The notes under the pieces were generated by a model. The model was not told where the DNA came from. It did no database searches and worked only from the letters and a program-made list of their open reading frames with translations. From Narcine bancroftii (Eukaryota): DNA of 64,000 nucleotides. Numbering within the stretch: position 1 is the first letter of the stretch; each line of letters opens with the position of its first letter. Both the position numbers and the translations under genes were made by a program. The stretch spans positions 100,130,001-100,194,000 of the forward strand of contig NC_091479.1 of NCBI RefSeq assembly GCF_036971445.1. The letters run 5' to 3'. Below are positions 260 to 63,030 of this stretch, in pieces.

Positions 260-339
260 CTAATCAGTTGACAACAGGATTGATCGCTGCTGATGGCCAA
301 CCACAGAACGTCATGGTTTATACAACATCATACCAACAG
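260..339 (+). CDS. NFYB: NF-YB penultimate coding exon
   Basis: cag|CTAATCAG...CAACAG|gtgagt encodes NQLTTGLIAADGQPQNVMVYTTSYQQ, matching the vertebrate NF-YB C-terminus (NQLPAGLITTDGQQQNVMVYTTSYQQ). Confidence 0.93.
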
Positions 340-451
340 GTGAGTTGTGCCTTTCAACATTCACCCTTTTATGCAAAAGATACCAGAAAGACTTGCCATC
401 AACAAAGGAATGGATGTACCCTTGACCCTACTGAGCCATCTGATATAAGAC

Positions 452-627
452 CATAAGACATAGGAGCAGAAATAGGCCATTCATCCCATCGAGTCTGCCC
501 CATCATTTAATCATGAGCTGATCCATTTTCCCACTCAGCCCCTCTGCCCGGCCTTCTCCCCATAACCTTTGATGTCCTGGCTAATCAAGAACCTATCAAT
601 CTGCTAAATTCCAACGAGTACAGGCCA
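452..627 (-). mobile_element. CR1 3' tail
   Basis: Reverse complement of the tail at 61450-61572; similar to 15248-15400. Confidence 0.7.
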
Positions 628-629
628 AG

Positions 630-905
630 TTAAAAACACTATGCTGGAGAAACTCAGCTGGTTAAACAGTGTCCTTTATGTAGCAAAGATAGATACAGAA
701 CCAAGGGCTGGAACCCTTCAAGGTATGAAAAAATGTGGACAGGTGCCCCAACAAAATGGTGGGGTGGGGGTAGTGGCAGGGGGAGGAGCGCAGTCACAAA
801 GGCAGGAGGTAATAGATGGATAAGAGAGGGAGGGCACAGCAGCAAACAGGGGGAGGGGTGGATGGCTCTGAATGGACAGGGAAGGGGGTGGAGAGCTGGA
901 GGAAG
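630..905 (-). mobile_element. Penelope-like tail
   Basis: Reverse complement of the 35560-35878 family. Confidence 0.7.
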
Positions 906-2936
906 CTACTCAGATGATGTCTTTCATTCCCAGAATCATATAGTGATCCTTTACAAGCTCATTCCTGCCCATTCCCATATCCCTTGATCCTTGTCATGGT
1001 TTCGGACTTCAAGACTTCCAACAATTGAGCATCTTTGCAGCTCTGAGTAGAATATTTCTGAGTACAGGAAATGTCTTCTCAGCTTGATCGGTCAAGCAAT
1101 AGCGAATGGGTTATTTTCAAACCAGTGGGAGGTGTACTGTTGTTCCCACCAGGGGCTGCTCTTAATGAATACGCAGAGTGTAATCTCCAAATTAATTCTT
1201 GTAGTCAGTCATATGTACCAGGGTACATTGATAAAAGTTTGTTATGCTTGCAATCCAGCTGGTCAGCCCAAACATACACAGTACAGATGTATAGAGAGAG
1301 ATCTGTCAGTGCAGTCCAAAGGCAGCAGTACTAATGTGAGGCTTGTTCAGGAGCCTGATGACAAACATTTGCAGCAAACTCGTAATGTGGAGGAGAGAAG
1401 CGTGGCCCTCGATTAGAAGGAGGGCTCAATTTTGCAAGGGAGGAAGATCTGGGAAAGACACAATAGGAACGCCCATGCACTGAGCAGGGATGGGTACAGT
1501 GGAGTGTTAATGCAGACTAACCTCAATGAGATTCTGTCAAGAAGCAGATCCTTGGCTTCAAACAATAGCCTCCGCTCTGTTCTTCATTCCACGGGAATCC
1601 AGCACATCCACCCTGAAGGGCTCAATATTTCACTGAGATGAGTCCATTCTACTCAATTCCACGGGCAGTCTTTCCTCTTTGAAATCAGTTCAGTACTGCA
1701 TCTTTGCACCCCTTCAAAGCTGAATCATCTCCCTCTCTATTCCATCCCTCAGTCTCCTTTCCTCCAGCTACTCACCCCCTCCCTCCATTCAAAGAGCTAC
1801 CATCTGCCCTTATCTCCAACCATAGAACATTACAATACAGAAAACAGGCCCTTCAGCTTTCTAGTTTGTGATGAGCTAATATTCTGCCTAGCTCCACTGA
1901 CCTACTCCCAGCCATACCCCTCCTATTCACGTACCATGTTAAAATTGAGCCAGCATTCACCACTTCAGCTGGCACTCATTCCACACTCCCACTACTCTCT
2001 GTGTGAAGTTCCCCTAAATGATCCCCTTAAACCTTTCCCCTTTCACCCTTAACCCATGTCCTCTGGTTTGTATCTCATCTACCCTTAATGGTAAAAAAAA
2101 ACTGTACCCCTTCTCATTTTGTATATCTCGATCAAATCTCCCATGATTCTTCCACACTCCAGGGAATAAAGTCCAACTGTTTTATCTGTCCCTGTAACTC
2201 AAGTTCCTGAAGTCCCAGCAAAATCCCAAGTACTGCTTATGGACATCTTTCCTGTAGTTAGTGGTCTCTTCTACCCTCCCACCTGTATCCACCTATGACC
2301 TTTTCCTTGTTAGCCCGTGCTTCTCTTCCCCCTTTATATTCAGGCATCTACCATTATTTGCTTATACCTTGATGAAGGGCCGATGCCTTTCCTTCCTGTG
2401 GATGCTGCGTGATCTGCGGAGTTTTTCCAGCACATTTGCACATTGCACTCAACCCCAGTATATGCCGACTTTCTTGATTAACTCGAAGCTAAAGAGATCT
2501 TTCTTTCACAGAAACAGGCCCTTCAGCCCATCTTATCCATGCCAACCAAGCTAGTCCCATATCCCTCAAAACCTTTTTTGTTCATGAACCTGTCTCAACA
2601 GTCCCCACTTCTACCACTTCCTCAGGCAGCTTGTCCATCACACTCTGTAAAGGTTCCCCTCAGATCCCTTTTAAATGTCTCACCAGGTTTGGTTTCCAGT
2701 AAGAGGACCCAACTTCACTACATCCCAGGCATGGTACCAGCATTAGCACAGAAATCCTCCCTCATCCTAACTGATTAATTAGTGAGAGCAAGCCTGCTCC
2801 CAGAAGCAGCTGCCCGCAACAGCTAGCAAATCCGTCCTGACCCACCAGTCTCTGAACTGCTCGATTGTCTGTACAAGATGTTCTCAGTCCCAGGGAAGAA
2901 ACCATAGAATAACGATCTCCTTCTTGACCCTGGCAG

Positions 2937-2969
2937 ATTTCAGGTGTACAGCCCATTCAGTTCTCCTGA
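2937..2969 (+). CDS. NFYB: NF-YB last coding exon
   Basis: cag|ATTTCAGGTGTACAGCCCATTCAGTTCTCCTGA = ISGVQPIQFS*, compare human ISGVQQIQFS*; phase 0 fits the previous exon. Confidence 0.93.
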   Translation: MSGVQPIQFS

Positions 2970-3436
2970 TGGAAGCTTCTCAAGACTTGGAATCATTAAG
3001 CCCTACAGTAAACGGAAAGGAATTCGGAAAGGAGATGGGAACAGTTGAATGGTGAACTGACTCGAAGAGGATGAGCTTCACCTGCTCCTGAATTGTATTC
3101 TTCTGGATAGTTGTAGATGCTTTGACAGGTTCCTGGGGTGTGTCTGAGAAATTCAGTTTCTGACCCCCCCTCCCTTACCCTTAACCTGAAGGATCATTTC
3201 TTATTTACCAGTTTTAAAACAAAAACAGAATCTTTATAATGTATCACAGTTACAAAGTACTTTTGTTTTGTACAAGAGTTGGTTTTGTGTAAACACATGC
3301 AGGAAGCTGATGTTATTGGCTGCTGTATGTGCAATTTATTACTGTCAAAACTTATGAGGCAGTATCTTATTTTCATATTGAATCATGTTGCTCCTTTTGT
3401 AATTCAAATAAGTAATTTCACTAGATGTACCCTTTT

Positions 3437-3458
3437 AATAAAACAGGTGTAAAATAAA
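3437..3458 (+). terminator. Likely NFYB polyadenylation signals
   Basis: AATAAA at 3437-3442 and 3453-3458, TGTA motifs upstream and T/GT-rich sequence downstream, about 470 nt after the stop codon. Confidence 0.55.
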
Positions 3459-3569
3459 TTGTTTTTGAGAGTACACTTGTTCTGTGCATCTGTTCTGTTT
3501 TCAAAAGGCACAGGATAAATTTGCTGGATATGTCCAGGGGCCTTAAGGAAGTAAATCTGTTAACCTTTG

Positions 3570-3990
3570 TTAATTTGGCCAACAATCTTTGGCTCCAATC
3601 CCTTCCACCACCATTTCCCCACTGGATTCTTCCATTCACTCCCCATCATTATCTGGCCCCTCTTAATACCATCATTCCCTCCTTTTCATAATTTCCTGGC
3701 AGCATTTGTCTTCAAACCAACCACTCCATCTGGTAGGATTCATCTTGCTCCCCCGACCCCTTCATTTGTCCTGCCTCTCTCCCCCTTTGTCTTGCATCTG
3801 CCAATCTAAGCCTCTGCCCTTCATGTTTCGCCTCTTCCTGGTCCACCAATCCCACATGAGGTCCTGTCCTCTCTACACTAGCTTCTGTTCTCCACATTCC
3901 CTGTCTTGATGAAGGGCTCTGGTCCGAAATGCCGACTGTTCTTTTTCCTCCCACTGATGCTGGTCGACCCACTGAGTTCCTCCAGCAGAT
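3570..3990 (+). mobile_element. Penelope-like tail
   Basis: C/T-rich body, TTGATGAAGGGCTCTGGTCCGAAA, CTGAGTTCCTCCAGCA end. Confidence 0.65.
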
Positions 3991-4889
3991 TGCATTTACA
4001 ATCTAAAAGCTGATAATCTGAAACCAGCATAGAAAATGCTCATTAATCGAAAGCAAGTCATCGCCCTGAGAGGTTAACTCATGTTTCTCATGCCACGGAT
4101 GCTGCCTGTCCAGCCAGTATTTTTAATTTTGCCCTGGTGACAGGGTTACTTCAGTTTGACAGCTGACTCGAATTCACCCTTTTTAATGGTTCAACAAGAT
4201 CCTCAGTTCAGGGTCACGTCTGCATGCCCTCACACCAGCAATGTCCACAGACAGACTGGAGAAACTTAACTCCAAATCCAAGATGCAATTTAAAAAAAAA
4301 CGTCTGTTACCATCATACAAACTCATCGTTGTCACTTCAGGTTCTACATGCATTGCTCCTTTGGATATTATTGGAAGGCGTGAAGGAATTAAAAAAAAAA
4401 CGTTTCTGAGTGGAACATCTCTTTCTGCCTTTTGAGCTGCTTTTATCTTTGAAGAGGTTATGCTGTGGTCAGAGACCTAAAAACTCTATTCCAGATTCAT
4501 CTGCCACTGGCATCCAGCCATTTTGGAGCTCTTTGGGGAAATGAGGAGTTGGCAGAGGCAGGGGTGATAATGAAATTTACAAGAAATAGATACCTTTTGA
4601 AATAAAATATATATATTCCATTTCTTTATATAACACATGTTTGCATCATCTTTCTTCTGCTATTGATAAAAAGAAACCATTTTCTTCCCATTTTAAAGTG
4701 TGTCTATCTATATTGGCAATTCATTGGTTAACAATGAAAGCAAATTAAGTAAACAAAGTGTATATTAAAAAAAAAATCAAACCTATATGGTTTAAACCAA
4801 AAGGATACTTTCTACCTACCCATCAACCTCGTCATGGAGTAGATGGAGAGTTGACACCTTTCTATCGATTGCTGAACGAAGTCTTTTCC

Positions 4890-6844
4890 AAACTTTATTA
4901 AATGGCAGCTCATAAATAAGATCAGTATTGCAAGAATACAAAGAGCGTAGCTTACTAATCTGTACATTCGGTTTAAGCCATTTCATGATGTGGACTGGTA
5001 GAGTTGTAATGGATGGTCAAGAGATAAGCATTCAGATTTGGCAACTTTTCTTTATTTTCATCACAGCATAAACCTACTAGGAACAGTTCTGATCAAATCC
5101 TACTTCAGATTGCATCTTTTTCTCTGAACATTAGGAACCAGCTAAAAAAGAAGATCTGCTGCAAACCTTAAATAGATAGGGTTATAAAAAACATCTGGCA
5201 CTGTCGTAAAAATAAAAAAAAATATTTCTGCATTTTATTGAGTTAACTGTACAAAATGAGTCTCTGATCACGAGGCATGAGAAAAATTATTTGTCCATTG
5301 ATGCGCTGCTCAAATATAGCTTTTTAATGAAAGGAAAATGAACAGAATTGTTTAAAGCAGTATTTACTGCAAAAGAGATTAACATTAACATTAACATGGA
5401 TTACTTAAATGATACTATGTATAATATGTGCAGAAAGATAAAAGAGCAATAGAACTAAAAATTATAAATTTCTTCCCAATTGACACTCCCAGTGAACCTT
5501 GCTACAGCTAAATGGTTAATGTGGCATTTTTAACAAAAGTGTTTTGTGCAAATGTTTTAGAGCAGACACGTAAAATTCAACTCAGCCCTGCTCTGCATTT
5601 TCGCACTGTTAATTTGATGTACAGAAACATTAAGAAAAAGTCCATAAAAATGCAAATTATAAGCTGCTGAGTTCAGTGACAAATATAAATCTACTGGTTA
5701 GTTAGCAGAAGTTATTCTGAAGTATACATTTGTTTGATGAAATTACACCTTTCATTTTCAGCCTCAGGCAGACAAAATATTGGACCGCGAATCCGTAAAG
5801 TTGCATGACCCCCTCACCGTACTGGAAATTCATGGTTCTCACCAAAATAGGAAGCTCTTGTGGAAGATACTTCAGTGGATTTAAATTTTGCAATTGAGGC
5901 AAAGTTTACTGCCCTTAAACTTCTTGATATCGAAGGAAGACATCAATACTTCTTCCATGCACAGGCCTGTCATTTTCCCTCCGATTTCATTCGGTAAGTG
6001 TTGGAGAATTTCAGAAACGTCTTTTAATTTGCAGACTGCGAAAGGCTTTTGGAAATAGTAGCCTAAGAAGTCACAATTGTTGTTAGTGATGTGGCAGAGG
6101 AACATTTGCAAAATAATAGGGTCATGCAACTTTTATATTCAATACATCTCCATTTCCGTTTTTATATTTGAATAAAAATTGAAAATAAAAAAAGTCTCAA
6201 ATTTTTTCGTCACAAATCATGCACAAAAATGCCACTCAGTGGCTCGCGCGCCTGCACCCACGTGCCCGCACACACACAAACACACGCAAAGAAAACTTCT
6301 CCAATAATTTTTGTTTCTAACGGTGATTCAGAATCTGTGTAAGTGCTACTCTGAGAACGAAGCTGCTCCTCCGTAGTGCCATTTTTTTTTTGGTCCCAAA
6401 CTTCATCCACATAAAAACATGCTTTAAAGACCTATCTAATCCACCTGCAACAAGGTGAAACACCAACATTTCTTTGAAAACTCTTTAAACCACTGCTTGC
6501 ATAGCAAACATCCAGTCACTACTGTAGTGATTTCAGAATAAGCCACTTTAGAAACAAGCCACCTACATGAACTCTGCACAGTAATGTTAATACAAACTTT
6601 AAATCTACATTGTTTCTAAAAAGCTATCATTTAAAACTTGCCTGAAGACTATTTGTCACAGTTCTAAAACAAGAAATGTTCTATGTACAATTAATACAAA
6701 TTAAATTTCTTCTCTAAGAAGCTCACAAGTTATAGGAATTAAGAGGATAACAGGAACATATTACAAAACATTTACAAAATAAATACAAATTACTATCCAA
6801 CAGTACTTTACTTTCATCCAGCAAATAGAAAAATCTTCTTCTCA
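4890..6844 (-). other. Probable HCFC2 3' UTR
   Basis: AT-rich, repeat-poor sequence after the stop; minus-strand AATAAA at 5234-5239, 5051-5056 and 4894-4899; TGTACATA (Pumilio-type) at 6682-6689; true end uncertain. Confidence 0.5.
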
Positions 6845-6884
6845 TCATTCGGACTTGGATTTCTTGGCACCTCCACTTGTAGTG
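6845..6884 (-). CDS. HCFC2: HCF exon 25 (second half of NLS, stop)
   Basis: NTTSGGAKKSKSE* followed by a second TGA, compare HCF-1 KSAPKKSKADGQ*. Confidence 0.82.
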
Positions 6885-9985: not shown

Positions 9986-11044
9986 ATTTATTATTGTGTC
10001 AAGATGATACCAGAACTGTAAAGATGCCCTGTGTTCAGTTTGCTGGTGTGGACCAGGGGAGTGTAGGCACTGCATTCCCCCGCGAGGTCCTTACCACCCA
10101 GACCAACTGCTGATGGCTCCATACAGACTTTAAATAGCCTGTTAAAGGCGCCAAAGGCGTTTTGTTTAAAATCCTGCGACGTCTCTATTCAGCAGCATCT
10201 GAGAGGGATTGCAGACTCCAGGGGTCAGTGGACTGGTGCGTGTACCAGTAATGGAGAGAACACCCCCACCGAGCCCCGCTGATAAGGTGAAGCAGAAGAG
10301 AGGACCCCAGTGATAGTTCCCACAGTGGCAGACCAGCAAGGGGGTCTATGGCTGAAGGACACAAACAGAAGGTGAGCTGTTGGCGACCTGTGGGTGAGGA
10401 ACCCACACAGGCTGCAGGCTCCTGGCCACTTGAGGGCAAAGGTCTCACACCAGGCTGCAGGCTGCTGGAGACAGGCTCATGAGAACCAAGTATTAGAACC
10501 AGGAGTCTAGAGGATGCAAGGAGGGCTCCTGATTTTGTACTGCTGCAAAGGATGTGGGAGCACAGGCGGTAAATACACAGATACTTGATAACTCTGGGGG
10601 TTGGGGGGGAGGGATCTATTTTGCTTCTCTTTCTCTCACTAGAAGGGGTTCCAGGCAATGCTAATGGCGAACCTTTGTCTGCTTGTGGCAGACTAAATGA
10701 AATTTTGTGTACCATTTAATTTCTGTTTTATATATGACAATAAATAATATCTGATCTGATTCTGAAGCGATTTATCAGCAGCTAATCTTAACTTTTCTGA
10801 TAAAGGCCATTGATTTGAGACATCAGGGATAAGATTTTTTTTACATACAGAGAGTTGTGGGTGCCTGAAATGCCTTGCCAGGGGCAGTGGTGGAGGCTGA
10901 AACTTTAGGGAGATTTAAGACATTATTAGACAACCACAAGGATGAAAGAAAAACAGAGAGTCATGAGGTAGGAAGATCTCAGTATTTTTTGGTCGGAATA
11001 TATAGATTGGCACAACATTGAGGGCTCTACTCTAAAAGGATTAC

Positions 11045-13164: not shown

Positions 13165-14200
13165 TAAAATTTTATTTTTATTGGTTTGCAATAATACAAA
13201 AATTAAACAATTATATATTAAAATACAAATTACAAGAGAAAGGAAAAAAAAAACCCTTAATTCAAAACCCCAACCTCAATGCAAGGTTGGGAAAAAAAAA
13301 CTAACATGTGGGTATCAAGTGGCGACAACCTGGAAATAGAAAGCACAGCAGCCAAGTTCATAACAACCCTAAAACTTTAGATTGTGGTCATGGTCCATAA
13401 AGGGGCCCCATGTTTTTAGAAAATGAGTATTTGAATCTTTAATGGCATATCTAATTTTTTCTAAACTTAAACAAGACAATATAATATCATTTAACCATTG
13501 TGTGTGTGTGTGTGTGTGTGTTGTGGAGTATTGCCTTTCTATTTGATCAAAATTGCACGTCTGGCTATCAATGAAATAAGTGATAAAATTTGGTTTGCGT
13601 TGGAATCAGTAAAACATCATCTTAAAATGATCCAAAAAGAGGAAAAGGCAAAGTTCTAATTTTTCCTTGAGAATCACTGATAATGTTTGAAAATTATCTT
13701 TCCAAAATTTTTCTAAACTAGGGCAAGTTAAGAAAATGTGAATCAAAGAAGCCTCAGCAATTTTACATTTCTCACATAGATGATTTATATCAGAGTGTAA
13801 ACAAGACCATTTAAATTTAGACCTATGTACTCTATGGACCAACTTAAGTTGCAATAAGCAATGTTGTGCACAAAGGGAGGTTGTATTACAAATGGAATCC
13901 CAAACTTTATCAGAGAATGGAAGATTCAAATCCTGTTCCCAGTCTCTCTTGATCTTAACTAATGAGGCTATTCTTAAATCAAGCAATTTGTTATCAATCA
14001 ACCATATTGAATCTTTATGAGAAAGTTGTAAATCAAAAAGTAAATCAAGAATCAAGAATTTGGGGAAGTCAGGTATGAGACTGAACAAAATGTCTAAAAC
14101 TTGTAAATATCTAAAAACAATGAGCGTGTGGTAAGTTAAAAGGAAGCACAATGATTTCAAATAAAAATGTCTTTAAAATATTTAATACCCAATCGCTTTT
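13165..14200 (-). mobile_element. Older L1 3' fragment
   Basis: ORF2 C-terminus QLKLVHRVH...CEKCK...IHIFLTCP; decayed A-rich tail. Confidence 0.8.
13499..13521. repeat. (TG)n microsatellite
   Basis: About 11 TG units. Confidence 0.9.
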
Positions 14201-32865: not shown

Positions 32866-32868
32866 TAC

Positions 32869-46295: not shown

Positions 46296-46502
<207 letters not shown>

Positions 46503-49426: not shown

Positions 49427-50110
49427 CCCTTTGGACTCTGGCAACTTTTTCAACTTTCATCATAAATACTCTAGACTGGATCCATGGGTAAACCTTTACA
49501 ATACGAATCAGCAGGCGGTTGGGTATAAAATAATTCCTGGAGTACAGTCATGCATTGCTTAATGTCCAAGATACGTTCTGTGAACTAGGACATTATGCGA
49601 TTTGGACATTGTGTGAATACCATATTATTTACTTAGCAAAGCTACAACATTCAAGAGACACGCAATACATGAGATTGTATGCAGCTGACTATGAGATGAA
49701 GCATACACTGTCATACGGTAAAGTTTTTATTTGTAAGTAGGGAAAGTTCACGTTAAAATAACAATAGAGAGTACAGTACATACATAAGCCAGTAACACAG
49801 GCGTTTATATTTGCTATCAAGACATATATTATAGGTTTTCTATATATTATGCCATTATATGCCTGGCAACGCAATTGTTTTGTGTACAAGAGACATGAGA
49901 TACATATGTTGCGGCGGGAAGCTGTTGTGTTCGCTACATCTGGTTACGTCTGCTACGTCCTGTTCTCTAACTGGGATTTCTGAACTTATAACCTTACAGG
50001 ACCACGGACGTATATGTATTCGGAGTTTGCCCGAACGGACGTTATGTAGCACATGACTGTACATGTGCTTGTTGGTAGTCCAGGAAAATCGGGACACAGA
50101 GCTCAAAGCA
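49427..50110. mobile_element. piggyBac-like non-autonomous element
   Basis: TTAA-CCCTTTGGACTCTG left end, imperfect right end CAGAGCTCAAAGCA-TTAA; interior keeps many CpGs. Confidence 0.6.
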
Positions 50111-50285
50111 TTAAATCACATTGTGGTTTCAGAGCTTCTTGTGGCTGAATTGGCTGACAGGTTGCCCATGCTACAACTAAGATTACAACTTAAAAAGTAC
50201 TCTGACAATACAAAAACAATTTGGGTCATTCCAATGTTGCGAATTTTCTTTGTGAAAATGCAGGTCATTTCTGTTATGCACTTAC

Positions 50286-50488
50286 CCACATCCAATATCC
50301 AAAGGTCACCCAGTCTGCATCCACTCATCCCTCCATAAATAATCATCTTTGGTTTTTTTGAATCTTTATAAACAACGGCTGTGTGAGATTCCCTTGGAGG
50401 AGGTGGAGTACCATGTGTAACAGGAATGTCCCAACCTACTACGCCAGATCCTGCTTTAAGTTCCACAGTGTACAAGTCATTTAAGTAC
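50286..50488 (-). CDS. HCFC2: HCF exon 4 (Kelch)
   Basis: [67 protein letters not shown]. Confidence 0.95.
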
Positions 50489-51149
50489 CTTCAAATACAA
50501 GAAAGAAAACATAAAATATGAGAGTCTGCAGACACTGTGATTAAAGTAAAAACACAATGCTGGAGGAACCAACATTTAAGGCTTGAGCCCTTTATCAAAG
50601 TAGAAAAGAAAGAAAAAGTTGAGAGTATTATATATTCAGTGTGACACAGAAATTAAGAATTCTAGAGACTTTGTCCAAAGCAACTATACTGTTCCCCCCT
50701 TTTTAAATGATGGCTTGCTAACGAGTAGCAAAGAAAGCCTTTTCAGAAACAATCTCTATCATTGTTTTGTTCAGTGACTTATTCCAGTTTTTCCTCATTC
50801 TTGATCAGCAAACATTTCCTCACTTCTTTTTTCTGCTCCCAACTACCACTTTGGATCATTCACTACATTGAAGAGATTACATGGATTCAGGCTAATACTG
50901 TAAGAGTGAAGCAAGTCGTTATATTTCATTTTGTTGTTCAATCAGTATGATAATTTGTCCGGACACCATCCAAAAGCCTCAGACAAGTTAAAAAAACACC
51001 CACATTTTTGTAAAATAAAACAAAGTTCATTGTTTTCTATCCTGCAACGTATGGATACCTTGCACCGATGTGCTTTTCAGCTCAGAAAGTTAATTTTAAA
51101 ACATGGATAAAAAGAATAAATTAAAATCATTCCATTGAGAGATTTAGAG

Positions 51150-51495
51150 CAGTGGTTCTCAACCTTTTTCTTTCCACTTTAAGTAATCCCTAGGCCATCG
51201 GTGCTCTGTGAATAGGAAGGGATTGCTTCAAGGGAAGGTTCAGAATCACTGCTCTCGACCCAATTGTTACTGAAATATTTTGCTTGAGAAAAAATGTCAT
51301 TGGCCCATTTCCTTTGGAGTTATGAAACCGTACACATAACAAGTCAATTAGGTACAATTAAAACAGTGGTTTTCAAACATTTTCTTTCCACCCACAGACC
51401 ACCTTAAGCAATCCCTTACTAATCACAGAGCACCCCTAGCATAGGGAATGCTTAAAGTGGTATGTGAGTGGAAAGAAAAAGATTGAGAACCACTG
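51150..51495 (+). mobile_element. Composite hAT MITE
   Basis: TIR CAGTGGTTCTCAA...TTGAGAACCACTG; TSD ATTTAGAG/ATTTGGAG. Confidence 0.88.
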
Positions 51496-51725
51496 ATTTG
51501 GAGGCTGCTGAATTCAGTAAATGGCTGTAGATCAGCCAACAGCCTCCTAAAGATCCCTTTAAAGATAAACTAGAGGTTTAGCAAGGTACAATTAAAATTG
51601 GTAAACTTGACTACATATTAATTTCGCTTCTCACTCAAAAAATAACAAATGTTCATTGCTAAAAATCAGAACTCACCAACAAGTCCATGAGTTTTAAAGA
51701 TAGCCCAAGAAGCTAAAGTTGAATT

Positions 51726-53042
51726 TTAAAAAAATTTCTCACACTATGAACCATATTAACCAAAATACACACAAACATTTCCCTCTTGAATATACACAGT
51801 GTCATTTTCTCCCATTTCCCCCCCTCCCTTCCCCCCCTCCTTCCCACCCGCCTTCCTACCCACTAAATGTTCAACATATACAATACAATAAACCCATTAA
51901 ACAATGTCATCACACAATGAAAATAAACAAGAAAATTGTGTCATCTACTTTTACACACTAGATCAGTTCATTTTGTCAACTTCTCATTCTATCATTTTAG
52001 GGGGTGAAGGTTTATGGTAGGCCCTCTCTGTTGTGTTCCATGTACGGTTCCCAAATTTGTTTGAATACTGTGACGTTATTTCTTAAATTATATGTTATTT
52101 TTTCCAATGGAATGCATTTATTCATTTCCATGTACCATTGCTGTATTCTCAGGCTCTCTTCTGATTCCAGGTTGACATTATACATTTTTTTGCTACAGCT
52201 AAGGCTATCATAATAAATCTTTTTTGTGCTTCATCCAATTTGAGGCCTAGTTCTTTACTTCTTATATTACCTAGAAGAAAGATCTCTGGATTTTTTGGTA
52301 TGTTGCTTTTTGTGATTTTATTTAATACCTGATTTAGATCTTCCCAAAACTTTTCCACTTTCTCACATGCCCAAATTGCATGTACTGTTGTTCCCGTTTC
52401 CTTCTTACAGCGAAAACATCTATCTGATACTGTTGGGTCCCATTTATTTAACTTTTGGGGCGTGATATAAAGCCTGTGTAACCAATTATATTGTATCATG
52501 CGTAACCTCGTGTTTATTCTATTTCTCATAGTTCCGGAGCATAGCTTTTCCCATTTTTCACTTATTATCTTTATATTTATCTTATTATTATCTTGTTCCC
52601 ACTTTTGTTTGGGTTTATTTAATCGTTCTCTTTCTCTTGCAGCTTGATGTACTTGTTTGTTATAAATCTTTTAATTATCATTGAGTCTGTAATCACATAT
52701 TCAAAGCTGATTCCTTCTGGTAACCTCAGCCTGCTTCCCAATGTGTCCTTCAAATAGGTTTTCAGTTGGTGGTATGCAAACATTGTACCGTGAGTTAGAC
52801 CATATTTGTACTTCATTTGTTCAAAGGATAATAAATTATTTCCCAAAAAACAATTTTCTATTCTTTTGATCCCTTTTCTCTCCCATTCTCTAAAGGGAAG
52901 GTTATCTATTGTGAAAGGGATTAGTTGATTTTGCGTCAATAATAATTTTGGTAGTTGGTCATTTGTTTTTTTCCTTTCTATGTGAATCTTCTTCAAAATG
53001 TTGAGCAGATGGTGCAGCACTGGTGAACTTCTATGTTGCATC
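51726..53042 (-). mobile_element. 5'-truncated L1, related family
   Basis: ORF2 C-terminal fragments similar to the 55.6-57.4 kb copy; TSD AGAAGCTAAAGTTGAATT at 51708-51725 and 53043-53060. Confidence 0.92.
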
Positions 53043-53064
53043 AGAAGCTAAAGTTGAATTAAAG

Positions 53065-53565
53065 CACAAGAGTCTGCAGATACCATGGCTGAAGGAAAAA
53101 AAGGATGCTGGAGAAACTCAGCAGGTCAAATTGTGTACTTTATTGTGTACTTTACCTCCCAGTGGCCAACCACTTCAATTCCACTCCCCATTCCCATGCT
53201 GACACATCTGTAATTTGGAGGAGCAACACTTAATTTTCCATCTATGTACTCTCCTACCGGATGGCATTAACATCAACTTCTCCAGTTTTTGCTAGCCTAC
53301 ACTCTCTCTATTCTCCTGCCTTTCCCTTTTTTCCTCCAGCTCTCCACTCCCCACCCCCCCACCATCCTTCTGCATTCACAGAGCCATCCCTTATCTACCT
53401 ATTACCTCCTGCTTGTGGGACAATCATTCTCCCCTGCCCCTCCCCCTCCTTGTGTTTAGACCCCTGCCAACATTTTGCACATACCCTGATGAAGGGCTCA
53501 AGACCAAAATGTTGCTACTGGAAGTCCACTGTTTGACCTGCTAAGTTTCTCCAGCATTGTTTTTA
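53065..53565 (+). mobile_element. Penelope-like fragment with inverted tail piece
   Basis: LPVANHFNS..HSHAD-like codons, EEQHLIF-like codons, C/T-rich tail, CTGATGAAGGGCTCAAG motif. Confidence 0.72.
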
Positions 53566-53859
53566 GCCCAAGACCTGTGTTCAATTTCTGTCAAGTAGCT
53601 ACCTAAATGTAAGATAGTTTGGAGCAGGCAAGATTTAAGCCACAATTCTATCAGAATGTTTTAAATATTTTACTGCTATTGATAAGCCCTCCATCATATC
53701 CTTATTAGAATAATTTTGAAAATTACAATTGATGAAAGTTAACATTTCTTTAAAAATGGATTTGCTCTGTCCAAATTATTAAAAATAGAACTCTGCCAAC
53801 CCCTAGTACAAATCCATAAGAAATAAAGCAAAGATTAGACGAGGGCAGATTAAGAATAG

Positions 53860-54070
53860 GGCAGCTCGGTTACCTTAGCAGTAAGCGCAACATTGTTACA
53901 GCGCCAGTGACCAGGGTTCAAACCTGGCACTGACTGTAAGGAGTCTGTACTTTCTTCGGGTGCTCCAGTTTCCTCCCACCGTTCAAAAAAGAAAACGTAC
54001 TGGGGGTTTTAAGTTAATTGGGTGTATGTCTAAATACATACATGCTGTATGTCTAAATTTTTTAAAATTA
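53860..54070 (+). mobile_element. V-SINE
   Basis: Same family. Confidence 0.72.
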
Positions 54071-54153
54071 GCAATGCAACAGCCATTGTTTATTTCTATT
54101 TTATTGTGACACACGTATTAAGGTAATTAAATATATTAGAAACAGAAGAGTAC

Positions 54154-54314
54154 CTTGGAATATTATTCTTTGGGTCTTCACTATCATTAGCTAAACCTCC
54201 AAATAAATAACACTTGTTGCCAACCAGACACAAGGTATGACCGAGACGGGGACAGGGCTGTGGACCATTTTTGGGTGGTTTTGGTTTCAGTTTCTTCCAC
54301 TCCCATCGACTTGC
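54154..54314 (-). CDS. HCFC2: HCF exon 3 (Kelch)
   Basis: [54 protein letters not shown]. Confidence 0.95.
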
Positions 54315-54454
54315 CTGGAACAGAAATCAAAAATAAAGAAAAATAAAATAAAACAGACAACAAAATAAAATTCAGCCAATTTATCAACATGGGAAGTTTA
54401 GACATCTTTAAGTTAAAGATTAAAGGACTAAGAAGCCATATCGGCAGTACACTA

Positions 54455-54760
<306 letters not shown>

Positions 54761-55347
54761 TTAGCATTCTAATATCAACATTTTCACTGTCAAACTCCCT
54801 CACAATAGGCTTCAAAGTTATCACCATTGGGACAAATGCCTGAACCCATGCAAAATTTTTAATAGGAAACAAACACGGGATTTAGCAACAGGAAATCAAC
54901 ATTTTAAAACTGTGTTGCATTATGCACATGCTTTTCATCATAAATGAGTTTACTATGAAGGCTGTAAAAACACAATGCTGGAGAAACTCAGCAGGTCAAA
55001 CAGCATACTTTATTTAGCAAAGATAAAGTTTCAGTCTTTAGCCTTTCATCAAGATATAAATGCTGTCTTCTGCCTCTGAGGCTTTTCCTCAAGGTTAAAG
55101 AGAATTCCGAAAAATAAAAAATTTAAAAAAAAAGGTTAAAGAGAATTCCCTTCCATTCTGGTACTGTGGGTTCCTAATGAGGATAAGCCGCAGCCTGCAG
55201 ACAGTCTCAGCTGGGAGGGTAGATGACACAGATGGTGAGATAGTTTGTAAAGAGGCAAGTTCCTTCCCACTATTTACACTGGGCTTCTGAATGGTCCTTC
55301 TCTATTTTAATCAGTCCTAATTCTCATATCAGTGGGGATGCTACACA

Positions 55348-57436
55348 TTTTTTTTTTTTTTAATTTTTTATTTTTCACACCATAAATCACAATAGCCATG
55401 ATATACACTTTTTCTTTTCCACACATTTACAGTGACTTTTTCTCCCTCCCCCCTCCCTCCTCCCAAGCCACCCCCCCATCCCCCCCCCTCTCATCCATTT
55501 TAGTTATACAATCTAGGTTGCATTAATTCAGTTAGACAATGTTGTCATTCAACAAAAATACACCAGAAATTCTACTGAGTCCATTCTTTTCTTTTCTTCT
55601 CCTTCCATCAACTTAGGTAATGTTTGTTCCCGGTAGGTTTTCGCTATTGTATTTAATGTAAGGCTCCCATACTTGTTCGAATATTTCAATATTATTTCTT
55701 AAACTATATGTTATTTTTTCTAATGGAATACATTTATTCATTTCTATATACCATTGTTGTATTTTCAAATTATCTTCCAATTTCCAGGTTGACATAATAC
55801 ATTTTTTTGCTACGGCTAGGGCTATCTTGACAAATCTTTTTTGTGCATCTTCCAAGTCAATTCCAAATTCTTTATTTTTTATGTTACTTAGGAGAAAGAT
55901 CTCTGGATTCTTTGGTATATTGTTTTCTGTTATTTTATTTAATATCTGATTGAGATCATCCCAAAATTTTTCTACTCTCTCACATGTCCAGATTGCATGA
56001 ATTGTTGTTCCCCTTTCTTTTTTACATCGAAAACATCTATCAGATACTGTTGGGTCCCATTTATTTAACTTTTGCGGTGTAATGTATAGTCTGTGTAACC
56101 AATTATATTGTATCATACGCAGCCTCGTATTTATTGTATTTCTCATCGTTCCAGAGCATAACTTCTCCCATGTTTCCTTTTTTATCTTTATATTTAAATC
56201 TTGTTCCCATTTTTGTTTAGTTTTACCATTTGTTTCCTCATTTTCCTTTTCTTGCAGTTTAATATACATATTTTTTATAAATCTTTTGATTAACATTGTA
56301 TCTGTAATCACATATTCAAGGTTACTTCCCTCTGGTAAACTCAAGTTGCTTCCTAATTTATCTTTCAAGTAGGATCTCAGTTGGTAATATGCCAGCGCTG
56401 TATCTCCAGTTATATTGTACTTATCTCTCATTTGTTCAAAGGATAAGAATCTACTTCCTGAAAAACAATTTTCTATTCTTTTAATCCCTTTTTTTTCCCA
56501 TTTTCTAAAGGCAAGGTTGTCTATTGTAAAAGGGAGTAGCTTATTTTGCGTCAATATTAGTTTTGGTATTTGGTAATTTGTTTTATTTCTTTCTACATGA
56601 ATCTTCTTCCATATATTGAGGAGATGGTGTAATACTGGAGAAGTTCTATGTTGTACCAATTTTTCATCCCATTTATATAATATGTGTTCAGGTATCTTTT
56701 CCCCTATTTTATCTAATTCTAGTCTCGTCCAGTCTGGTTTTTCCCTTGTTTGATAAAAATCTGATAGGTACCTTAATTGTGCGGCTCTATAATAATTTTT
56801 GAAGTTTGGCAATTGTAAGCCTCCTTGTTTATACCATTCTGTTAATTTGTCTAGTGCTATCCTCGGTTTCCCCCCTCTCCATAAAAATCTCCTTATTATT
56901 TTCTTTAACTCTTTGAAGAATTTTTCTGTCAGTTGTATTGGCAATGCCTGAAATAAGTATAGTATCCTTGGAAAAATGTTCATTTTAATACAGTTTATCC
57001 TTCCTATCAGTGTTAGTGGTAGCTCTTTCCAATGCTCTAAATCGTCCTGTAATTTTTTCATTAGTGGATTGTAATTGAGTTTATATAATTGGCCTAGATT
57101 TTTGTTTATTTGCACACCTAGGTATCTTATTGCCTGCGTTTGCCATCTGAATGGGGATTCCTCCTTAAATTTTGAGAAATCCGCGTTATTCATAGGCATT
57201 GCTTCACTTTTATTTACGTTTATCTTGTATCCCGACACTTCTCCATATTCCTTCAATTTCTTATATAGTTCTTTTATTGATAGTTCTGGTTCTGTTAAGT
57301 ACACTATCACATCATCCGCAAACAGACTGATTTTATATTCCCTGTCTTTTATTTTTATTCCTTTTATATTATTATCTCTTCTTATCGATTCTGCTAGTGG
57401 TTCTATAGCTAGCGCAAACAATAATGGTGATAGTGG
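55348..57436 (-). mobile_element. Young 5'-truncated L1-clade LINE
   Basis: About 607 uninterrupted ORF2 codons (PLSPLLF, FADD, CCHC knuckle CFRC...HAIWTC), 3' UTR, poly(A), TSD GGGGATGCTACACA at 55334-55347 and 57437-57450. Confidence 0.95.
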
Positions 57437-58884
57437 GGGGATGCTACACATTTTCAAGGTGGCTTAATACATCACTCAGTACTTGGTCATTGACTTGGAA
57501 GAGGACACGAAGCTGATTTATTTATCTTTGCCAGAGTACTATGCAAGACAAGATTGGTAGTACAGCAATCTAACACATTCAAGACTTTGGTTTTGCATGT
57601 TATCTGGACTAAGAAATATTGTGCAACCAGGCAGGTTTAAATAGAATGCAGGAACAAAAACTCTGGTGAATTAGAAGGGAACACAGGAACCAGGGCTGCA
57701 GTTAGAGGGAAAGGAGCACAAGAAGAAAAAAAATAATCTGGTGACTCATGCTGAACTATCGGATGGTCAGAGAGTGGATCATCAGTTTTATTACATCACA
57801 CCAATGCTTTGAAGGGCTTGCTATTGGTTATCCATGTATGAACCTAGCAGGAGCAGGTATCACTGCTGCACTGCAGACCATGAGATCAGTGCCAGAGTTT
57901 AAGTCTTGATCTTCAATGGCTCTTTTCCTCAAAATATACCGTGAATGTACTTAATGGACACAAACTATTCCCTAGGGACATGTCTGAGCCTGGAATGAAA
58001 ATAATTAATATTTATTAGTGATGACACGTGTTTTTTTTCCTTGGCAAATATGATCCATTTTAGAAAATATGTATAAATGATAATATTGAGAACAGTGAAA
58101 AGGATTCTTTAAAGTAATCTCTAAAACCAATGCTTTCTTTAATCAGCAGATTTAGTGGTGAAGTCTTCTACATTGATTCCAATGCTTCAGGAGTCCTGGT
58201 CACCCATACTTTCAGGAACCAAAACATTCCTGAAGCCAATTCTGCATTTCCACCTCACTCAATTATGCCCCAAAATATCACTGCCAACCAGAGCACGGCT
58301 TCACGTCAGATCTCAGTTTAATTATTGTGCTTTCAAGTTACTCTAGAGCCAATGCCAAAAATTCTATAAATTGGATTAAAGAATTGTGCCGACTCTCTAT
58401 CCCACTGAGCTTTATGTTGGCAACAATTTTATTAAAGTTGCTGTAACTCTTTTTATTTCAGAACCGTCACGTTGTTTGTGGGTAAAAGCATTACTCAGTA
58501 CAAATATCACCTAGAAATGACGACAAATTAATCCCTGGTCAATACCAAATTCATTTGCAGCACCATAATTAACCGCAGAACGACAGATTTGGAGAATCAT
58601 CTGGATTTTCGAAGGACATTTGTCTTGTATTTGACCCAATTATCGACAAAGGAGGTGCAGAGGATTAAGATCACTTTTGGCACCCCTCTGGCACATTCAC
58701 TATTCAGGACCACATATTAAAAATGGCCTTTGCACAAGTTCTGTGGAAATAGCAGAACCAAGATCTTAGAGAGGGAAGAACACCTCGAACAGAAAGTTTA
58801 TTTTTACCACAAATAAATCTGTAAAAAATTAAAGGAAAATAAACTTTTTAAGTTTTAAAAGATATGCAAATGAAGCATTTAAAC

Positions 58885-59232
58885 CAGTGGTTTTCAAACT
58901 TTTTCTTTCCACTCACATACCACTTTAAGTATTCCCTATGCCATCGGTGCTCTACAATTAGTAAGGGATTGCTTAAGGTGGTATGTGAGTGGGAAGGGAA
59001 GGTTGAGAATCACTGCTCTAGACTCAATTGTTACTGAAACACTTTGCTTGAGAAAAATTGTCACTGGTCCATTTCCTTTGGAGTTATGAAACCATGCACT
59101 TAACGAGTCCATTAGGTATGATTAAAACAGTGGTTTTCAAACTTTTTCTTCCACTTTAAGTAATCCCTTACTAATCACAGAGGACTATGGCATTTGTATG
59201 TGAGTGGGAAAAAAAATGTTTTAAAGCCACTG
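58885..59232 (+). mobile_element. Composite hAT MITE
   Basis: Same two modules and spacer; TSD ATTTAAAC/GTTTAAAG. Confidence 0.85.
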
Positions 59233-60984
59233 GTTTAAAGAATAATTTACAGCATTTTTCTGGCATCGAGGATTTTATGATGGAAAACTCAAAAACACAG
59301 TACCTACCATGTATTCTTGCATTTACAGATGCAAAATTAAATGTAATATTTTTCATACAACTCAGTGCAGATATTTTTAATGTCCTTGTGGATGTATTTT
59401 GAGAAATCAAAACCAGAAAACATAAGATGACAAAACTTGGAACATAAAAGATGGGGCTCAATAGTTAAAATAGCAAAAGGTCTTCACTACGATTGAACGG
59501 TTTAAAAAAAAGGTAACTGCTCAAAGTAAAAATAAAAATCAGGATGTTATGCTCAATAAAATCAGAATAAGAGTTGTGTTTTGTGAAGGAAACCTCATTC
59601 ACAAAGACGCGTACAACAGAGGGAGCCCTACACTGTCATTTCTGGAACAGCTCCAAACAGATTTTAAAGCACGCCAAAAAAATGTAAACAAGGAACGATT
59701 GAAACAGACCTCCAATTGCCGCATTGCCCGTTGCAAAAAAATGCCATGATTGAAGGCACACAGACTTGGTAAAGAACCAGTAAAAACATGCCCAGAAATT
59801 ATTGCAGAGCACAGCACAAATTATTTTTTGAAATTTCCCCTCTCCCTCAAAACTGCAAGAATGACCTGTATTCATACGGAGCCTCAAATTTTGTAAAGCA
59901 TCCCACATACAACTTAAAGGAGCAATAGTCAAATATTTGATTTAAAGCCACATCAAGAAATGAAAGTCATGATAACAATAAAAATTGACCAAAGATTTAA
60001 GGGACTTTCTTTCGAGGAAAGAGAAGTTTATGCATGGATTGTCAGGTATTGCACTGACTTGACACATGGCTTTTACAAGGAACCCCACTACCATTACAAA
60101 GATTAATAAGAGATCACACACCAGCAGATTCAAGGACAGCTTCTTTCCCAATATTATGAGACACCTGAATAAACTCCAAAATAGTAAAATTATTAACTCC
60201 ATACTATTTGATCTCTTTCTGTAACTCTGCGCATTTGTACTGTCTAAGAAGGTTCTCAATCTTTTTTTGTTCCACTCACACGCCACCTTAAGTAATCCCT
60301 TCCTAACCACAGAGCACCACTGGACTCGAAGAATACAAAGGTGAAGTTGCGAGTGATTACAGGGGGTACAAAGGGGAAATAGTGGAATCATCAGAAGATG
60401 GAGGCTGAACTTGAGGGTATGAAGAAGAGACCGATGGATCACACACAGGGGATGATGATGAAGAAAAAGCAGGATTTATGGGGGGAGCTACAGAGGAGGC
60501 AAGACCGGTATCAACGCTTCACTTGCATATCAACCTGGAAGTGCAGTTTGCCCCTTCCTACATTAGTCTCTATAAATAATTTCAACCCAAAATGTCGACC
60601 TGACTCACTGAGTCTATAATTTCTCTTTAAGCAGCAGAAGGGATGGTCGACAGATTGGGTGGAGACAGTGAATTAGGACTGTCAGATTGAGCAATGGTGC
60701 ATGACAGGAAAAAAGCGAGGTTCTCTTGAGCAAATATTTAGAAGCTGGAGTGGGGCAGGCAGCATCCATTGGTATAATGTTTCAGATCTAGAGAATGAAC
60801 GTGTGACATCAAATATCAAGGGAGAAAGGGGCTTGGTGGGGGGGGGGGGGGAATCAAGAGATGATAAGGCAATGAACAGAAGATGTGAAAGGTGGAGTGA
60901 CAAAGAAAACAGAGTGATGAGTATAGATGAGGTGGGGATCAACTAAAGTTATAAAAATTAATGTTCATAGAAGGGAGGGACTGA

Positions 60985-61572
60985 ATTTGGGATCAGGGGG
61001 ATTATGCTGCAACATCACAAGGTAGTAGTGAGGCATCTGGAATACTGTGTGCAGTTCTGCTCTCTTTACTTGAGGAAGGATGTACTGGCTTTGGAGGCAG
61101 CCCAGAGGAGGTTCATCAGGTAGATTTCAGAGATAAGACGGCTAGCCTACGGGGAGAGATAGTGCCACCTGGGACTATACTTGCTGGATTTAGAAGAATT
61201 AGAGAGAATCATAGAAAATGTATACAATTATGAAAGGCATAGATAAGATAGTGTTGTTTTCCATTGGTGGGAGAGACTAGAACTAGAGGACACAGCCTCA
61301 GGATTCGGGGTACATTGAGGATGGAAATTAGGAGGAACTACTTTTCTCAGAGGGTGGCAAATCTATGGAATTCGCTGCCCATTGAAGCAGTGGAGGTGAC
61401 CTCAGTAAATATATTTAAGACAAGGTAGGATAGATTTTTACACAGTAGGAGAATTTACAGATTTTGGGGAAGGCAGGTAGGTGGTGATGAGTCCATCATC
61501 AGATCAGTCATGATCTCATTGAATGGCAGAGCAGGCTCGAGGGGCCAGTTGGCTGCCTTCTGCTCCTATTTC
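60985..61572 (+). mobile_element. CR1-type LINE 3' fragment
   Basis: HLEYCVQF-like codons; 3' tail similar to 23045-23276. Confidence 0.8.
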
Positions 61573-62110
61573 CTCAGGAGTTGGCGGAGGTTTGGCAGGA
61601 CATCAGAAACCCTGACGAATTTCTACAGATGTGTGGTGGAAAGTGTGCTGACAGGCTGCACAACGGTCTGGTATGGGGACACCAATACCGCCAAACGCAA
61701 AGCCCTCCAAAGGTAGTGGACGCAGCCCAAGACATCACAGGCAAAACCCTCCCCACTATCAAGAACATCGGAGAGCAGCAGCAATTATCAAGGATCCACA
61801 CCACCTAGCACACGCCCTGTTCTCGCGGCTGCCGTCAGGAAAGAGGTGTCGCTGCCACAAGACTCGTACCACCAGGTTCAGGAACCTGACTCCTCAACAG
61901 CAAATTCAATCAGGGACTCATTTAAGGACTCTCACTTGTGCACTTTATTGATTTTGTTTATTTTCTCTGAAATGCAGTTTATTAACATATGCATGTTGAG
62001 TCTGTTTTATTTTTGCACTACAAATAAATTCCTTGCCTGCAGGGAAAAGAATCTCAGAGTTGTAGGTGATATTATTCATGCTCTCTGGCAATATTTCTCA
62101 ATGTGAATTT
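61573..62110 (+). mobile_element. Rex1/Babar-type LINE 3' end
   Basis: LTNFYRCVVESVLTGCTTVWYG; similar to 32270-32865. Confidence 0.8.
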
Positions 62111-62149
62111 GAAGACTACAACAGTGGGGTGATCAGAGCCAGAAAGCAA

Positions 62150-63030
62150 GCTGATTGGATAGGATGGTGATCACGTGGTCGCGAACTCGGGCTCGGTGTA
62201 AACAAAGGGAGAGGCGCCGCGCTCGCCCCCTGCCGACCCGGAGGGCAGCCATCCGCTGCGGCTCCTCCTTCCCTGAGCCGGCCCAGCTCCTGCCTCGCCA
62301 GGCCCCGACCCGCCCACCGTCAACATAAAAAAAAAGCACGGCCGGGAGAGGACGGTGCAGACGCTGTGTTGGGCGCCCGGACGCCATTAAAGCCGACGCC
62401 GGACGAAGGGTGGGGGGTGCCGGCCTTCGGGTTCACCCGCCCCTCCGTCCGGCGGTGGCTCGGGAGGTGGGGCAGTGACAATCCGTCCCCTCCAGGCGAA
62501 CGTTCGGCCCGGTGGCTGGCGGTCAGCCCTGCTAAGGTTCTCCTCCTGACAGATCCGCACCCCCCCTCCCCCACAGACGGGCTCCGCGTACTGACACCAT
62601 CCCCAACCCACCCCGGCACCTGAAGGAGAGTGCTCCCCCCTCCCGCACCTCGCAGCCGAGCGCCGGCGGTGCTGTTTAATGCGCGTTTTATTTTTTAAAC
62701 GCCGCCGCTCGGCGCCAATGGCTCGGTCCGACCGCCATCTTGGAGACTGGCAGCAAATGGCGCCCTTCCCGCCTTCTCCTCCCTCCCTCCTCACCTGTGT
62801 TGTAGACGTGCAGCTCGTCCACGATCCCTTCGTTGCCACCGCCGAATATGATCATCAGCTCTTTGATCGCCACCACGCGGTGGCCATGACGGGGTCGAGG
62901 AACCGGCCCGGTGGCTCCGGTTACCCGTCTCCATTTGGGAGAGGGAGCCGCCATCTTACTACACCCTGCCCAGAGTGCACCGCGGCCGGCGCCGCCTCCT
63001 GGTAACGCAGCCAAAGTGCCCGGATGGGTA
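62150..63030. promoter_or_regulatory. CpG island / promoter region of the HCF gene
   Basis: Strong GC and CpG enrichment over exon 1 and proximal intron 1; YY1-type CGCCATCTT (62949, 62733), CCAAT boxes, CACGTG, TCGCGA. Confidence 0.85.
62795..62954 (-). CDS. HCFC2: HCF exon 1 (Kelch 1)
   Basis: [53 protein letters not shown]; Kozak aagATGg; donor gtgagg. Confidence 0.95.

Follow-up and report, generated by a model that had tools for sequence, protein, structure and literature searches.

A long HCF-2 gene beside NFYB in the ray Narcine bancroftii, whose genome holds three long HCF genes

A 64-kb window (64,000 nucleotides) of the Narcine bancroftii genome, on contig C23, contains a long HCF gene next to NFYB. 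The original prediction read it as an HCFC2-locus gene with the full architecture of HCF-1, which raises the question of which HCF this is and how much of HCF-1 it really holds. The gene has 25 exons on the minus strand (ATG at 62954, stop at 6845, CDS of 4,443 nt), and all 24 introns are GT-AG. Its translation of 1,480 aa is a 100% match to the public record P0004 from the same species. The gene is convergent with NFYB, as predicted; the last two NFYB coding exons lie on the plus strand at 260-339 and 2937-2969. Pfam matched the NFYB histone-fold exon, 3.3 kb before the window, as CBFD_NFYB_HMF and gave no name to the short NFYB exon. Around HCF exon 1 there is a CpG-island-like stretch (62001-63000) with a GC content of 59-65% and a CpG observed/expected ratio of 0.86-0.94.

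The domain order is that of HCF-1. Exons 1-7 on the minus strand (44519-62954) encode the Kelch domain, and Pfam Kelch_HCF was found on 5/5 Kelch exon frames scanned; these exons are at 62954-62795, 54648-54500, 54314-54154, 50488-50286, 48667-48583, 46425-46319, and 44698-44519. Exon 8 (41935-42225) carries the N-terminal half-Fn3 (self-association) and the start of a linker. It is followed by a T/V/K-rich basic region in exons 9-15 (26083-41498), with exons 9-12 at 41498-41311, 38113-37889, 36111-36007, and 33088-32869 and exons 13-15 at 28408-28272, 27861-27720, and 26303-26083. The predicted composition of this region was confirmed: residues 393-858 contain 26 K+R against 3 D+E, with 18% T and 13% V. 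Two PRO-like units are encoded, one in exon 16 (23684-23927) and the other in exon 17 (21718-21878). Exons 18-20 (15976-20637) encode a diverged acidic region that lacks the HCF-1 activation-domain motifs, and residues 859-1241 contain 8 K+R against 42 D+E. The C-terminal Fn3 elements are in exons 21-23 (15058-14921, 12063-11878, and 11342-11045). The basic C-terminal tail, KR...KKSK, resembles a bipartite NLS and would be expected to act as one, and it is divided between exons 24 (9206-9149) and 25 (6884-6845, with the stop), in agreement with the spliced NLS that had been proposed.

Splicing was followed in assembled reads. A contig joined exons 12-16 across four introns (junctions 12-13, 13-14, 14-15, and 15-16) in all four runs. 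All four belong to a single study and are RNA only by presumption, and they were used solely for what their contigs bridge; among the runs listed, none that holds the gene was recorded as RNA. Read-supported splicing thus covers exons 12-16 of the stretch from exon 9 to exon 20 for which junction evidence had been proposed.

Trees and gene order support the identification of the window gene as the HCFC2 orthologue, as the original prediction held. In three Kelch+Fn3 trees, cartilaginous HCF2 and bony HCF2 formed a clade with SH-aLRT/UFBoot support of 97.3/96, 90/98, and 94.7/87, given as bipartition values. No sequences came up from lamprey, coelacanth, or lungfish, and the trees are without them. 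The order of genes on C23 is HSP90-TDG-GLT8D-HCF-NFYB-TXNRD, so that the neighbors sought on both sides were found. Pfam matches around the gene were HSP90, Glyco_transf_8, NFYB, and Pyr_redox, while TDG was recognized by eye alone from two short TDG-like exons without a Pfam match. We take this order to match that of human 12q23 (HSP90B1-TDG-GLT8D2 / HCFC2 / NFYB-TXNRD1). The window gene thus shares both its clade and its gene neighborhood with bony HCFC2.

It could instead be argued that the gene is an HCFC1 that moved beside NFYB, or a hybrid made by gene conversion between HCFC1 and HCFC2. Its raw Kelch+Fn3n identity is 85% to bony HCF1 and 67% to bony HCF2, and at 35 columns diagnostic for bony HCF1 versus bony HCF2 it carries 22 HCF1-type, 6 HCF2-type, and 7 other residues. 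However, the branches of bony HCF2 are long and raw identity is therefore misleading; compared with reedfish HCF2, several invertebrate HCFs are nearer to bichir HCF1. Both residue types are indeed present in the Kelch and Fn3 sequence, as the description of a mosaic had it, but most of this is ancestral sequence, and neither KPPAPS nor GVVGW, which had been listed as HCFC2-type, is specific to HCF2. Grouping of the window clade with bony HCF1 was rejected (AU p=0.004), the neighbors on both sides are those of the HCFC2 block, and a true HCF1 is present on another contig. An HCFC1 origin or a hybrid is largely refuted by these results and seems to us scarcely credible. The outcomes that would have spoken against HCF-2, namely grouping with HCFC1 in a genome that has no other HCFC1, or exons 9-20 left unspliced, were not what we observed.

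The separate HCFC1 locus was found on G000:C8 at about 330.11-330.15 Mb, with clade support of 98-100. Exons 2-26 of this gene are an exact match to P0018; exon 1 did not appear in the 200-kb region examined, the upper 90 kb of which is tandem repeat. The genome also contains a third HCF gene, on C11. This gene is intact, with 27 exons, GT-AG at all introns, and a product of 1,604 aa identical to P0122. It is named "host cell factor 1-like" in RefSeq and sits in a clade of its own (100/100). There are thus three long HCF genes in this ray genome, not the two HCF-1-like co-regulators that had been proposed. At 15 of the 24 introns of the window gene, both other ray genes have an intron at the same column and phase.

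The C11 gene is flanked by RPN1 and a RAB7 gene, with GATA and TXNRD genes nearby (block content: GATA, Ribophorin I, HCF, Rab, H1-like, and Grx+TXNRD); the orthology names of these neighbors are presumptive. The block is paralogous to those of HCFC1 and HCFC2, having GATA and RAB7-type genes in common with C8 and the TXNRD and GLT8D families in common with C23. Orthologues were found in 23 cartilaginous fishes, and no bony vertebrate was among the matches listed. These comprised 120 matches, 16 at 90-100% and all cartilaginous and 104 at 49-74%, out of a larger set with 1,676 further matches; the check on bony vertebrates covers the 120 listed. No published description of this gene was found. 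Retention of ohnologues in cartilaginous fishes and their loss from bony vertebrates is a general pattern. The C11 gene fits it in having its own clade, a paralogous block, and only cartilaginous orthologues among the listed matches, and it is likely a third member of the vertebrate HCF family that was lost from bony vertebrates.

Alternatively, the C11 gene might stem from a duplication inside the cartilaginous fishes, or it might be the true orthologue of a single bony gene. Support for the branching order among the three HCF clades was weak (45.8/69, 31/67, and 31.5/35), and the hagfish HCF was placed with C11 in one tree (51.3/43) and with C23 in another (66/67). Grouping of C11 with bony HCF2 was not rejected (AU p=0.074, the constrained trees coming from a fast search), which means that gene order, rather than the sequence test, decides which gene is called HCFC2. 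Against a recent duplicate, C11+C8, C11+C23, and an all-cartilaginous group were each rejected (p=0.010, 0.018, and 1e-6), and the neighbors in common with C8 and C23 point to a block that was duplicated whole. Grouping of C11 with bony HCF1 was also rejected (p=0.033). We therefore regard this explanation as improbable and prefer an old third lineage.

Although the domain order and the basic core (68-72% identity to the window protein) are those of HCF-1, calling the architecture fully HCF-1-type was an overstatement. Bony HCF-1 has several PPCE repeats, an exon carrying MAALAAAAA, and an ELAV...QAV motif; the window gene has neither motif, and its two repeats are degenerate. Between exons 9 and 10 it lacks the ancient MAALAAAAA exon that the C8 and C11 genes both possess, and tblastn within the window found no remnant of it. 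This motif and three ancestral acidic motifs were absent from all 12 cartilaginous HCF-2 proteins, while the hagfish HCF has MAALAAAAA and two of the three acidic motifs in near-identical form. ELAV...QAV, a putative TFIID-binding activation motif, was found in none of 13 cartilaginous HCF-2 records. From its 24-residue spacing, its distance from the C-terminus, and the length of the mouse protein, we infer that it is the V1623/V1647 TFIID-contact site of a preprint. The motif is whole in HCF-1, half present in the C11 gene ("HCF-3"), and absent in HCF-2. It is also absent from the hagfish HCF, so its absence from HCF-2 may not be a loss.

The repeats of the window protein read PAHE and VHGE rather than PPCE, and both have Glu10 in register with a Thr-rich part. 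The same pair of PRO-like units occurs in the hagfish HCF and in all three shark-type HCF genes, each unit having its own exon in the ray genes, suggesting that the multi-repeat exon of bony HCF-1 was a later expansion and not a sudden viral insertion.

A long HCF-2 in cartilaginous fishes is already known. Gudkova et al. 2019 (PMC6582346) describe long HCF-2 of chimaera and shark, infer loss of these parts in bony vertebrates, and read the long protein as an intermediate form. Like that HCF-2, the window protein combines an HCF-2-type Kelch domain with a basic region, an acidic region, two degenerate PRO repeats, and an NLS. The proposal of an ancestral long HCF-2 was thus not new, and the ray adds a species, gene order, and splice evidence. 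Overall identity to the chimaera HCF-2 record is 77.5%, with 89% in the basic core, 100% over 21 aa of repeat 1, 87% in the repeat-2 exon, and 46% in the acidic region. Bony HCF2 proteins were 747-838 aa long in 6/6 sampled and, in contrast to the window protein, have no basic motifs, repeats, or KR...KK tail. The short form is derived, as predicted, but it is common to the bony vertebrates sampled and not confined to mammals. PMC6582346 counts two HCF genes per jawed vertebrate where the ray genome has three, and in the sections consulted no mention was found of the missing basic-region exon or activation motifs. Ten of ten chimaera records checked were HCF-2 or C11-type, and the published chimaera "HCF-1", whose repeat was reported to be cleavable by OGT, may thus be a C11-type gene.

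Taken together, the window gene is very probably an intact, spliced HCFC2 orthologue encoding a long HCF-2, likely an intermediate in the shrinkage of HCF-2 after whole-genome duplication had left jawed vertebrates with three or more long HCF genes. With somewhat less confidence, we think it probable that all three lineages persist in sharks, rays, and chimaeras, among them an undescribed HCF-3 between RPN1 and RAB7A in a block matching human 3q21, and that bony vertebrates lost HCF-3 and shrank HCF-2; the graded TFIID motif, the chimaera "HCF-1" as HCF-3, and the later repeat expansion belong to the same reading.

By analogy with published work on HCF-1, the Kelch domain of this HCF-2 would dock on transcription factors that carry an HCF-binding motif, Sin3 and similar co-regulators would bind to the basic region, and O-GlcNAc transferase would dock on the two Thr-rich repeats. 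Partial cleavage needs only Glu at position 10 and the Thr-rich part (PMC6240873). Since Glu10 is in register in both repeats, we predict a degree of cleavage that is probably lower than for HCF-1, after which the Fn3 halves would keep the fragments associated. The tail should make the protein nucleoplasmic and not nucleolar; human and mouse HCF-2 are nucleolar (PMC6582346). Full redundancy with HCF-1, including OGT cleavage and activation of the same promoters, would be in keeping with what the gene retains: a Kelch domain, the larger part of the basic region, two repeats with Glu10 in register, and an NLS-like tail, all well conserved relative to chimaera. It would also agree with the report that each 50-aa piece of the human basic region is dispensable on its own (PMC2814863). 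However, the HCF-1 activation-motif profile scored below 0 bits on 6/6 cartilaginous HCF-2 proteins and 92-95 bits on 4/4 cartilaginous HCF-1 proteins. Repeat 1 also has Ala at position 8, and cleavage of the human repeat is inhibited by P8A and C9A (PMC4549301). Full redundancy is thus unlikely. Since the putative TFIID-contact motif is absent, HCF-2 is instead predicted to be a promoter-tethered scaffold or a competitor of HCF-1 and not a second strong activator.

The window gene extends a published result to a ray, with evidence from gene order, and carries little weight alone; the retention of ohnologues in sharks is common, which limits the surprise. For specialists in HCF and OGT, the additional findings are of greater interest. 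The third long paralogue corrects the picture of a two-member family and possibly the identity of a protein on which that argument drew. With its three genes, the ray provides a natural series in which to ask what parts of HCF make it a CpG-island activator, and the two-unit repeat in common with hagfish offers a testable ancestral substrate for the origin of OGT proteolysis.

Two smaller observations concern the exons of the window gene. A candidate exon that includes KRSK, at 10681-10585, was dropped from the model as absent from P0004, although it may be used as an alternative exon. Intron 7 contains a 339-bp duplicate of exon 9 with its flanking sequence (43035-43373, minus strand), 97.3% identical to 41185-41523; judging from exon length and phases, the 188-nt copy of exon 9 would shift the frame if spliced in.

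The HCF-like exons were placed on the minus strand by six-frame reading of the window. Five of the 14 frames scanned against Pfam matched Kelch_HCF, and one gave a weak fn3 match. A homologue search with exon 3 as query retrieved P0004, a protein record of 1,480 aa from the electric ray, Narcine bancroftii. By exact spliced matching, the gene has 25 exons separated by 24 GT-AG introns, and its coding sequence of 4,443 nt translates to P0004. Together with the position of NFYB, which lies on the plus strand, ends at 2969 and is convergent with the HCF gene, this confirmed the gene as originally predicted. The predicted basic region was also real, with 26 K+R and 3 D+E across residues 393-858; an acidic region (residues 859-1241) contains 8 K+R and 42 D+E. 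In all four runs used, one contig of 5.8-7.1 kb ran from exon 12 through exons 13, 14 and 15 into exon 16, bridging four introns whose GT-AG ends lie on the minus strand. The predicted splicing of exons 9-20 was thus supported for exons 12-16, the junctions covered by these runs, which are from one study and were only guessed to be RNA.

Several smaller features were seen in the window. A recent local duplicate of exon 9 lies upstream of exon 8 (43035-43373, copying 41185-41523 with its splice sites) and would shift the frame if included in the mRNA. One of the four runs carried an in-frame 3-base insertion at 26232 (exon 15), probably an allele. The lengths of the run contigs imply an HCF-2 3' UTR of 3-4.4 kb if unspliced (about 2400-6845), which would touch NFYB's 3' end, on the opposite strand, or overlap it. 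Between exons 23 and 24, an AG/GT-bounded open stretch encoding KRSK (10585-10681, minus strand) is absent from the matching protein record and could be either chance or an alternative exon. The introns also hold decayed reading frames of LINE-type retroelements (55616-57463, 52015-53047, 13372-14172 and 29978-30436).

Each of two exon searches, with 12 and 7 candidates scored, yielded three HCF loci in the ray genome, on contigs C23 (the window gene), C8 and C11. The gene order on C23 is HSP90 family, TDG-like (recognized by eye only), glycosyltransferase-8, the window gene, NFYB and thioredoxin-reductase-like, which matches that of the human HCFC2 block and which places the predicted GLT8D2, TDG and TXNRD1 counterparts where expected. 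Three Kelch+Fn3 trees were built with 54, 34 and 31 sequences picked from 472 fetched, excluding isoforms and most fragments. In these, the window gene and its cartilaginous orthologues clustered with bony HCF2 (SH-aLRT/UFBoot 97.3/96, 90/98 and 94.7/87), bearing out the HCFC2 orthology. Grouping this clade with bony HCF1 was rejected (AU p=0.004).

The Kelch and Fn3 sequence had been described as a mosaic of HCF-1 and HCF-2 residues. RILVFGG and LANAH are indeed common to the window and all three bony HCF2 sequences shown, but KPPAPS and GVVGW are also present in the C11 gene. At 35 diagnostic columns, the window gene has 22 HCF1-type, 6 HCF2-type and 7 other residues, compared to 29, 2 and 4 for the C8 gene and 25, 3 and 7 for the C11 gene. 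The mosaic reflects slow evolution. The original observation and orthology are correct; the claim built on them was already known and in part overstated. In the available part of Gudkova et al. (2019; PMC6582346), the basic region, the acidic region and the NLS are kept in HCF-2 of chimaera and shark, and the ancestral long HCF-2 originally inferred is already stated.

The overstatement concerns the "full HCF-1-type" architecture, since three elements are missing from the window gene. The first is an exon with a MAALAAAAA motif, which both other ray HCF genes have at the place between window exons 9 and 10. The motif was found in 0 of 12 cartilaginous HCF-2, 11 of 11 C11-type and five of six C8-type proteins. 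It was lost early, because near-identical forms are present in hagfish, amphioxus, snail and scorpion. Second, two acidic motifs seen in hagfish HCF are missing from cartilaginous HCF-2. Third is a motif, ELAV...QAV, that we take to be the TFIID-binding activation domain, mapped to mouse V1623 and V1647 in a preprint (10.64898/2025.12.28.696747), because in rodents its valines are 24 apart and its distance from the C-terminus agrees. It is whole in six of seven cartilaginous HCF-1 records, the seventh being fragmentary. All 11 C11-type proteins have its first half, and it was not found in any of 13 cartilaginous HCF-2 records. Profile scores were 92-95 bits for cartilaginous HCF-1, 15-40 for C11-type and below 0 for HCF-2. 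The motif was also not found in hagfish HCF, so the pattern may reflect either gain or loss. This gradation across the three ray genes is a new lead.

The PRO-like repeats of the window gene number two, and in every one of 12 HCF-2 orthologues both retain the position-10 Glu in register with the Thr-rich part. Repeat 1 is identical to chimaera repeat 1 over 21 residues. This register is enough by itself for a foreign peptide to be partly cleaved (PMC6240873). In the human repeat, cleavage is inhibited by the changes P8A and C9A (PMC4549301); window repeat 1 reads PAHE. OGT docking with weak cleavage would thus be predicted. Searching 739 candidates with the repeat-2 exon yielded 37 proteins: 36 from cartilaginous fishes, plus one hagfish protein (P0414). 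The latter carries both units (residues about 950-1020), the same two as all three shark-type genes, so the pair is older than jawed vertebrates. Kapuria et al. (2016; PMC4840301) proposed a sudden arrival of the repeats in a single large exon, perhaps of viral origin. Each ray HCF gene has its two units in separate exons, which fits a later expansion within bony HCF-1 better than a sudden arrival, although such an expansion would not account for how the repeats first arose.

The predicted separate HCFC1 locus was found on C8 (about 330,108,350-330,153,440; L031-L036). Its gene matches P0018, clusters with bony HCF1 at 98-100 and neighbors a Rab gene, a CDK-like kinase and a GATA1-like gene. 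Exon 1 was not found within the fetched 200 kb and a tandem-repeat array of about 90 kb lies upstream, pointing to a possibly very long intron 1. A divergent Rab7-like gene (49-66% identity to C11 Rab7 exons) and the CDK-like kinase sit between HCFC1 and the GATA1-like gene (L030 5451-9632 and L027-L028); the former may be another retained duplicate.

Instead of the two HCF-1-like co-regulators proposed, the ray genome has three long HCF genes. The third, on C11 (about 51,480,014-51,618,460; L011-L024), is intact, with 27 exons encoding 1,604 aa (P0122), and retains the basic region, two PRO-like units (the first PPHE) and a basic tail. It lies between Ribophorin I, with a GATA2/3-type gene beside it, and a Rab7-like gene, followed farther downstream by an ORF resembling a linker histone and by a glutaredoxin-bearing thioredoxin reductase. 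These match the human 3q21 set GATA2, RPN1, RAB7A, H1-10 and TXNRD3, where no HCF gene is known to lie between RPN1 and RAB7A. A second glycosyltransferase-8 gene is 11 Mb off on C11. This block has GATA and Rab7 in common with C8, whereas TXNRD and GLT8D link it to C23, the pattern that whole-genome duplication would be expected to leave.

Among the 120 best matches listed for a C11 exon query (1,676 more lay beyond them), 16 had 90-100% identity, all from 11 cartilaginous species; the other 104 had 49-74%. Cluster members add 12 species, giving C11-type orthologues in at least 23 cartilaginous fishes, and all three HCF types occur in five species besides this ray. C11 exons 1-7 are covered at 97.7% by a 354-aa protein from a contig of 1.3 kb, suggesting a spliced C11-type transcript. 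The C11 type, chimaera included, forms its own clade (100/100), and the trees gave no well-supported branching order for the three HCF clades. In AU tests on fast constrained searches, duplication within cartilaginous fishes was rejected (p=0.010, 0.018 and 1e-6) and grouping with bony HCF1 narrowly so (p=0.033); grouping with bony HCF2 was not (p=0.074).

This third gene is a new lead. No published description of it, nor the names "hcfc3" and "hcf-3", was found in the literature covered, which excludes most subscription journals, and the 12 of 24 files searched in a whale-shark supplement (PMC8455134) gave no match. In rows from a little-skate supplement (PMC10115646), the automatically assigned names Hcfc1-1 to -5 fall on two chromosomes. 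Five of ten chimaera records were HCF-2, five C11-type and none C8-type, and an older RefSeq chimaera model, "host cell factor 1-like", is C11-type. The chimaera "HCF-1" of PMC6582346 is, therefore, probably the third HCF gene.
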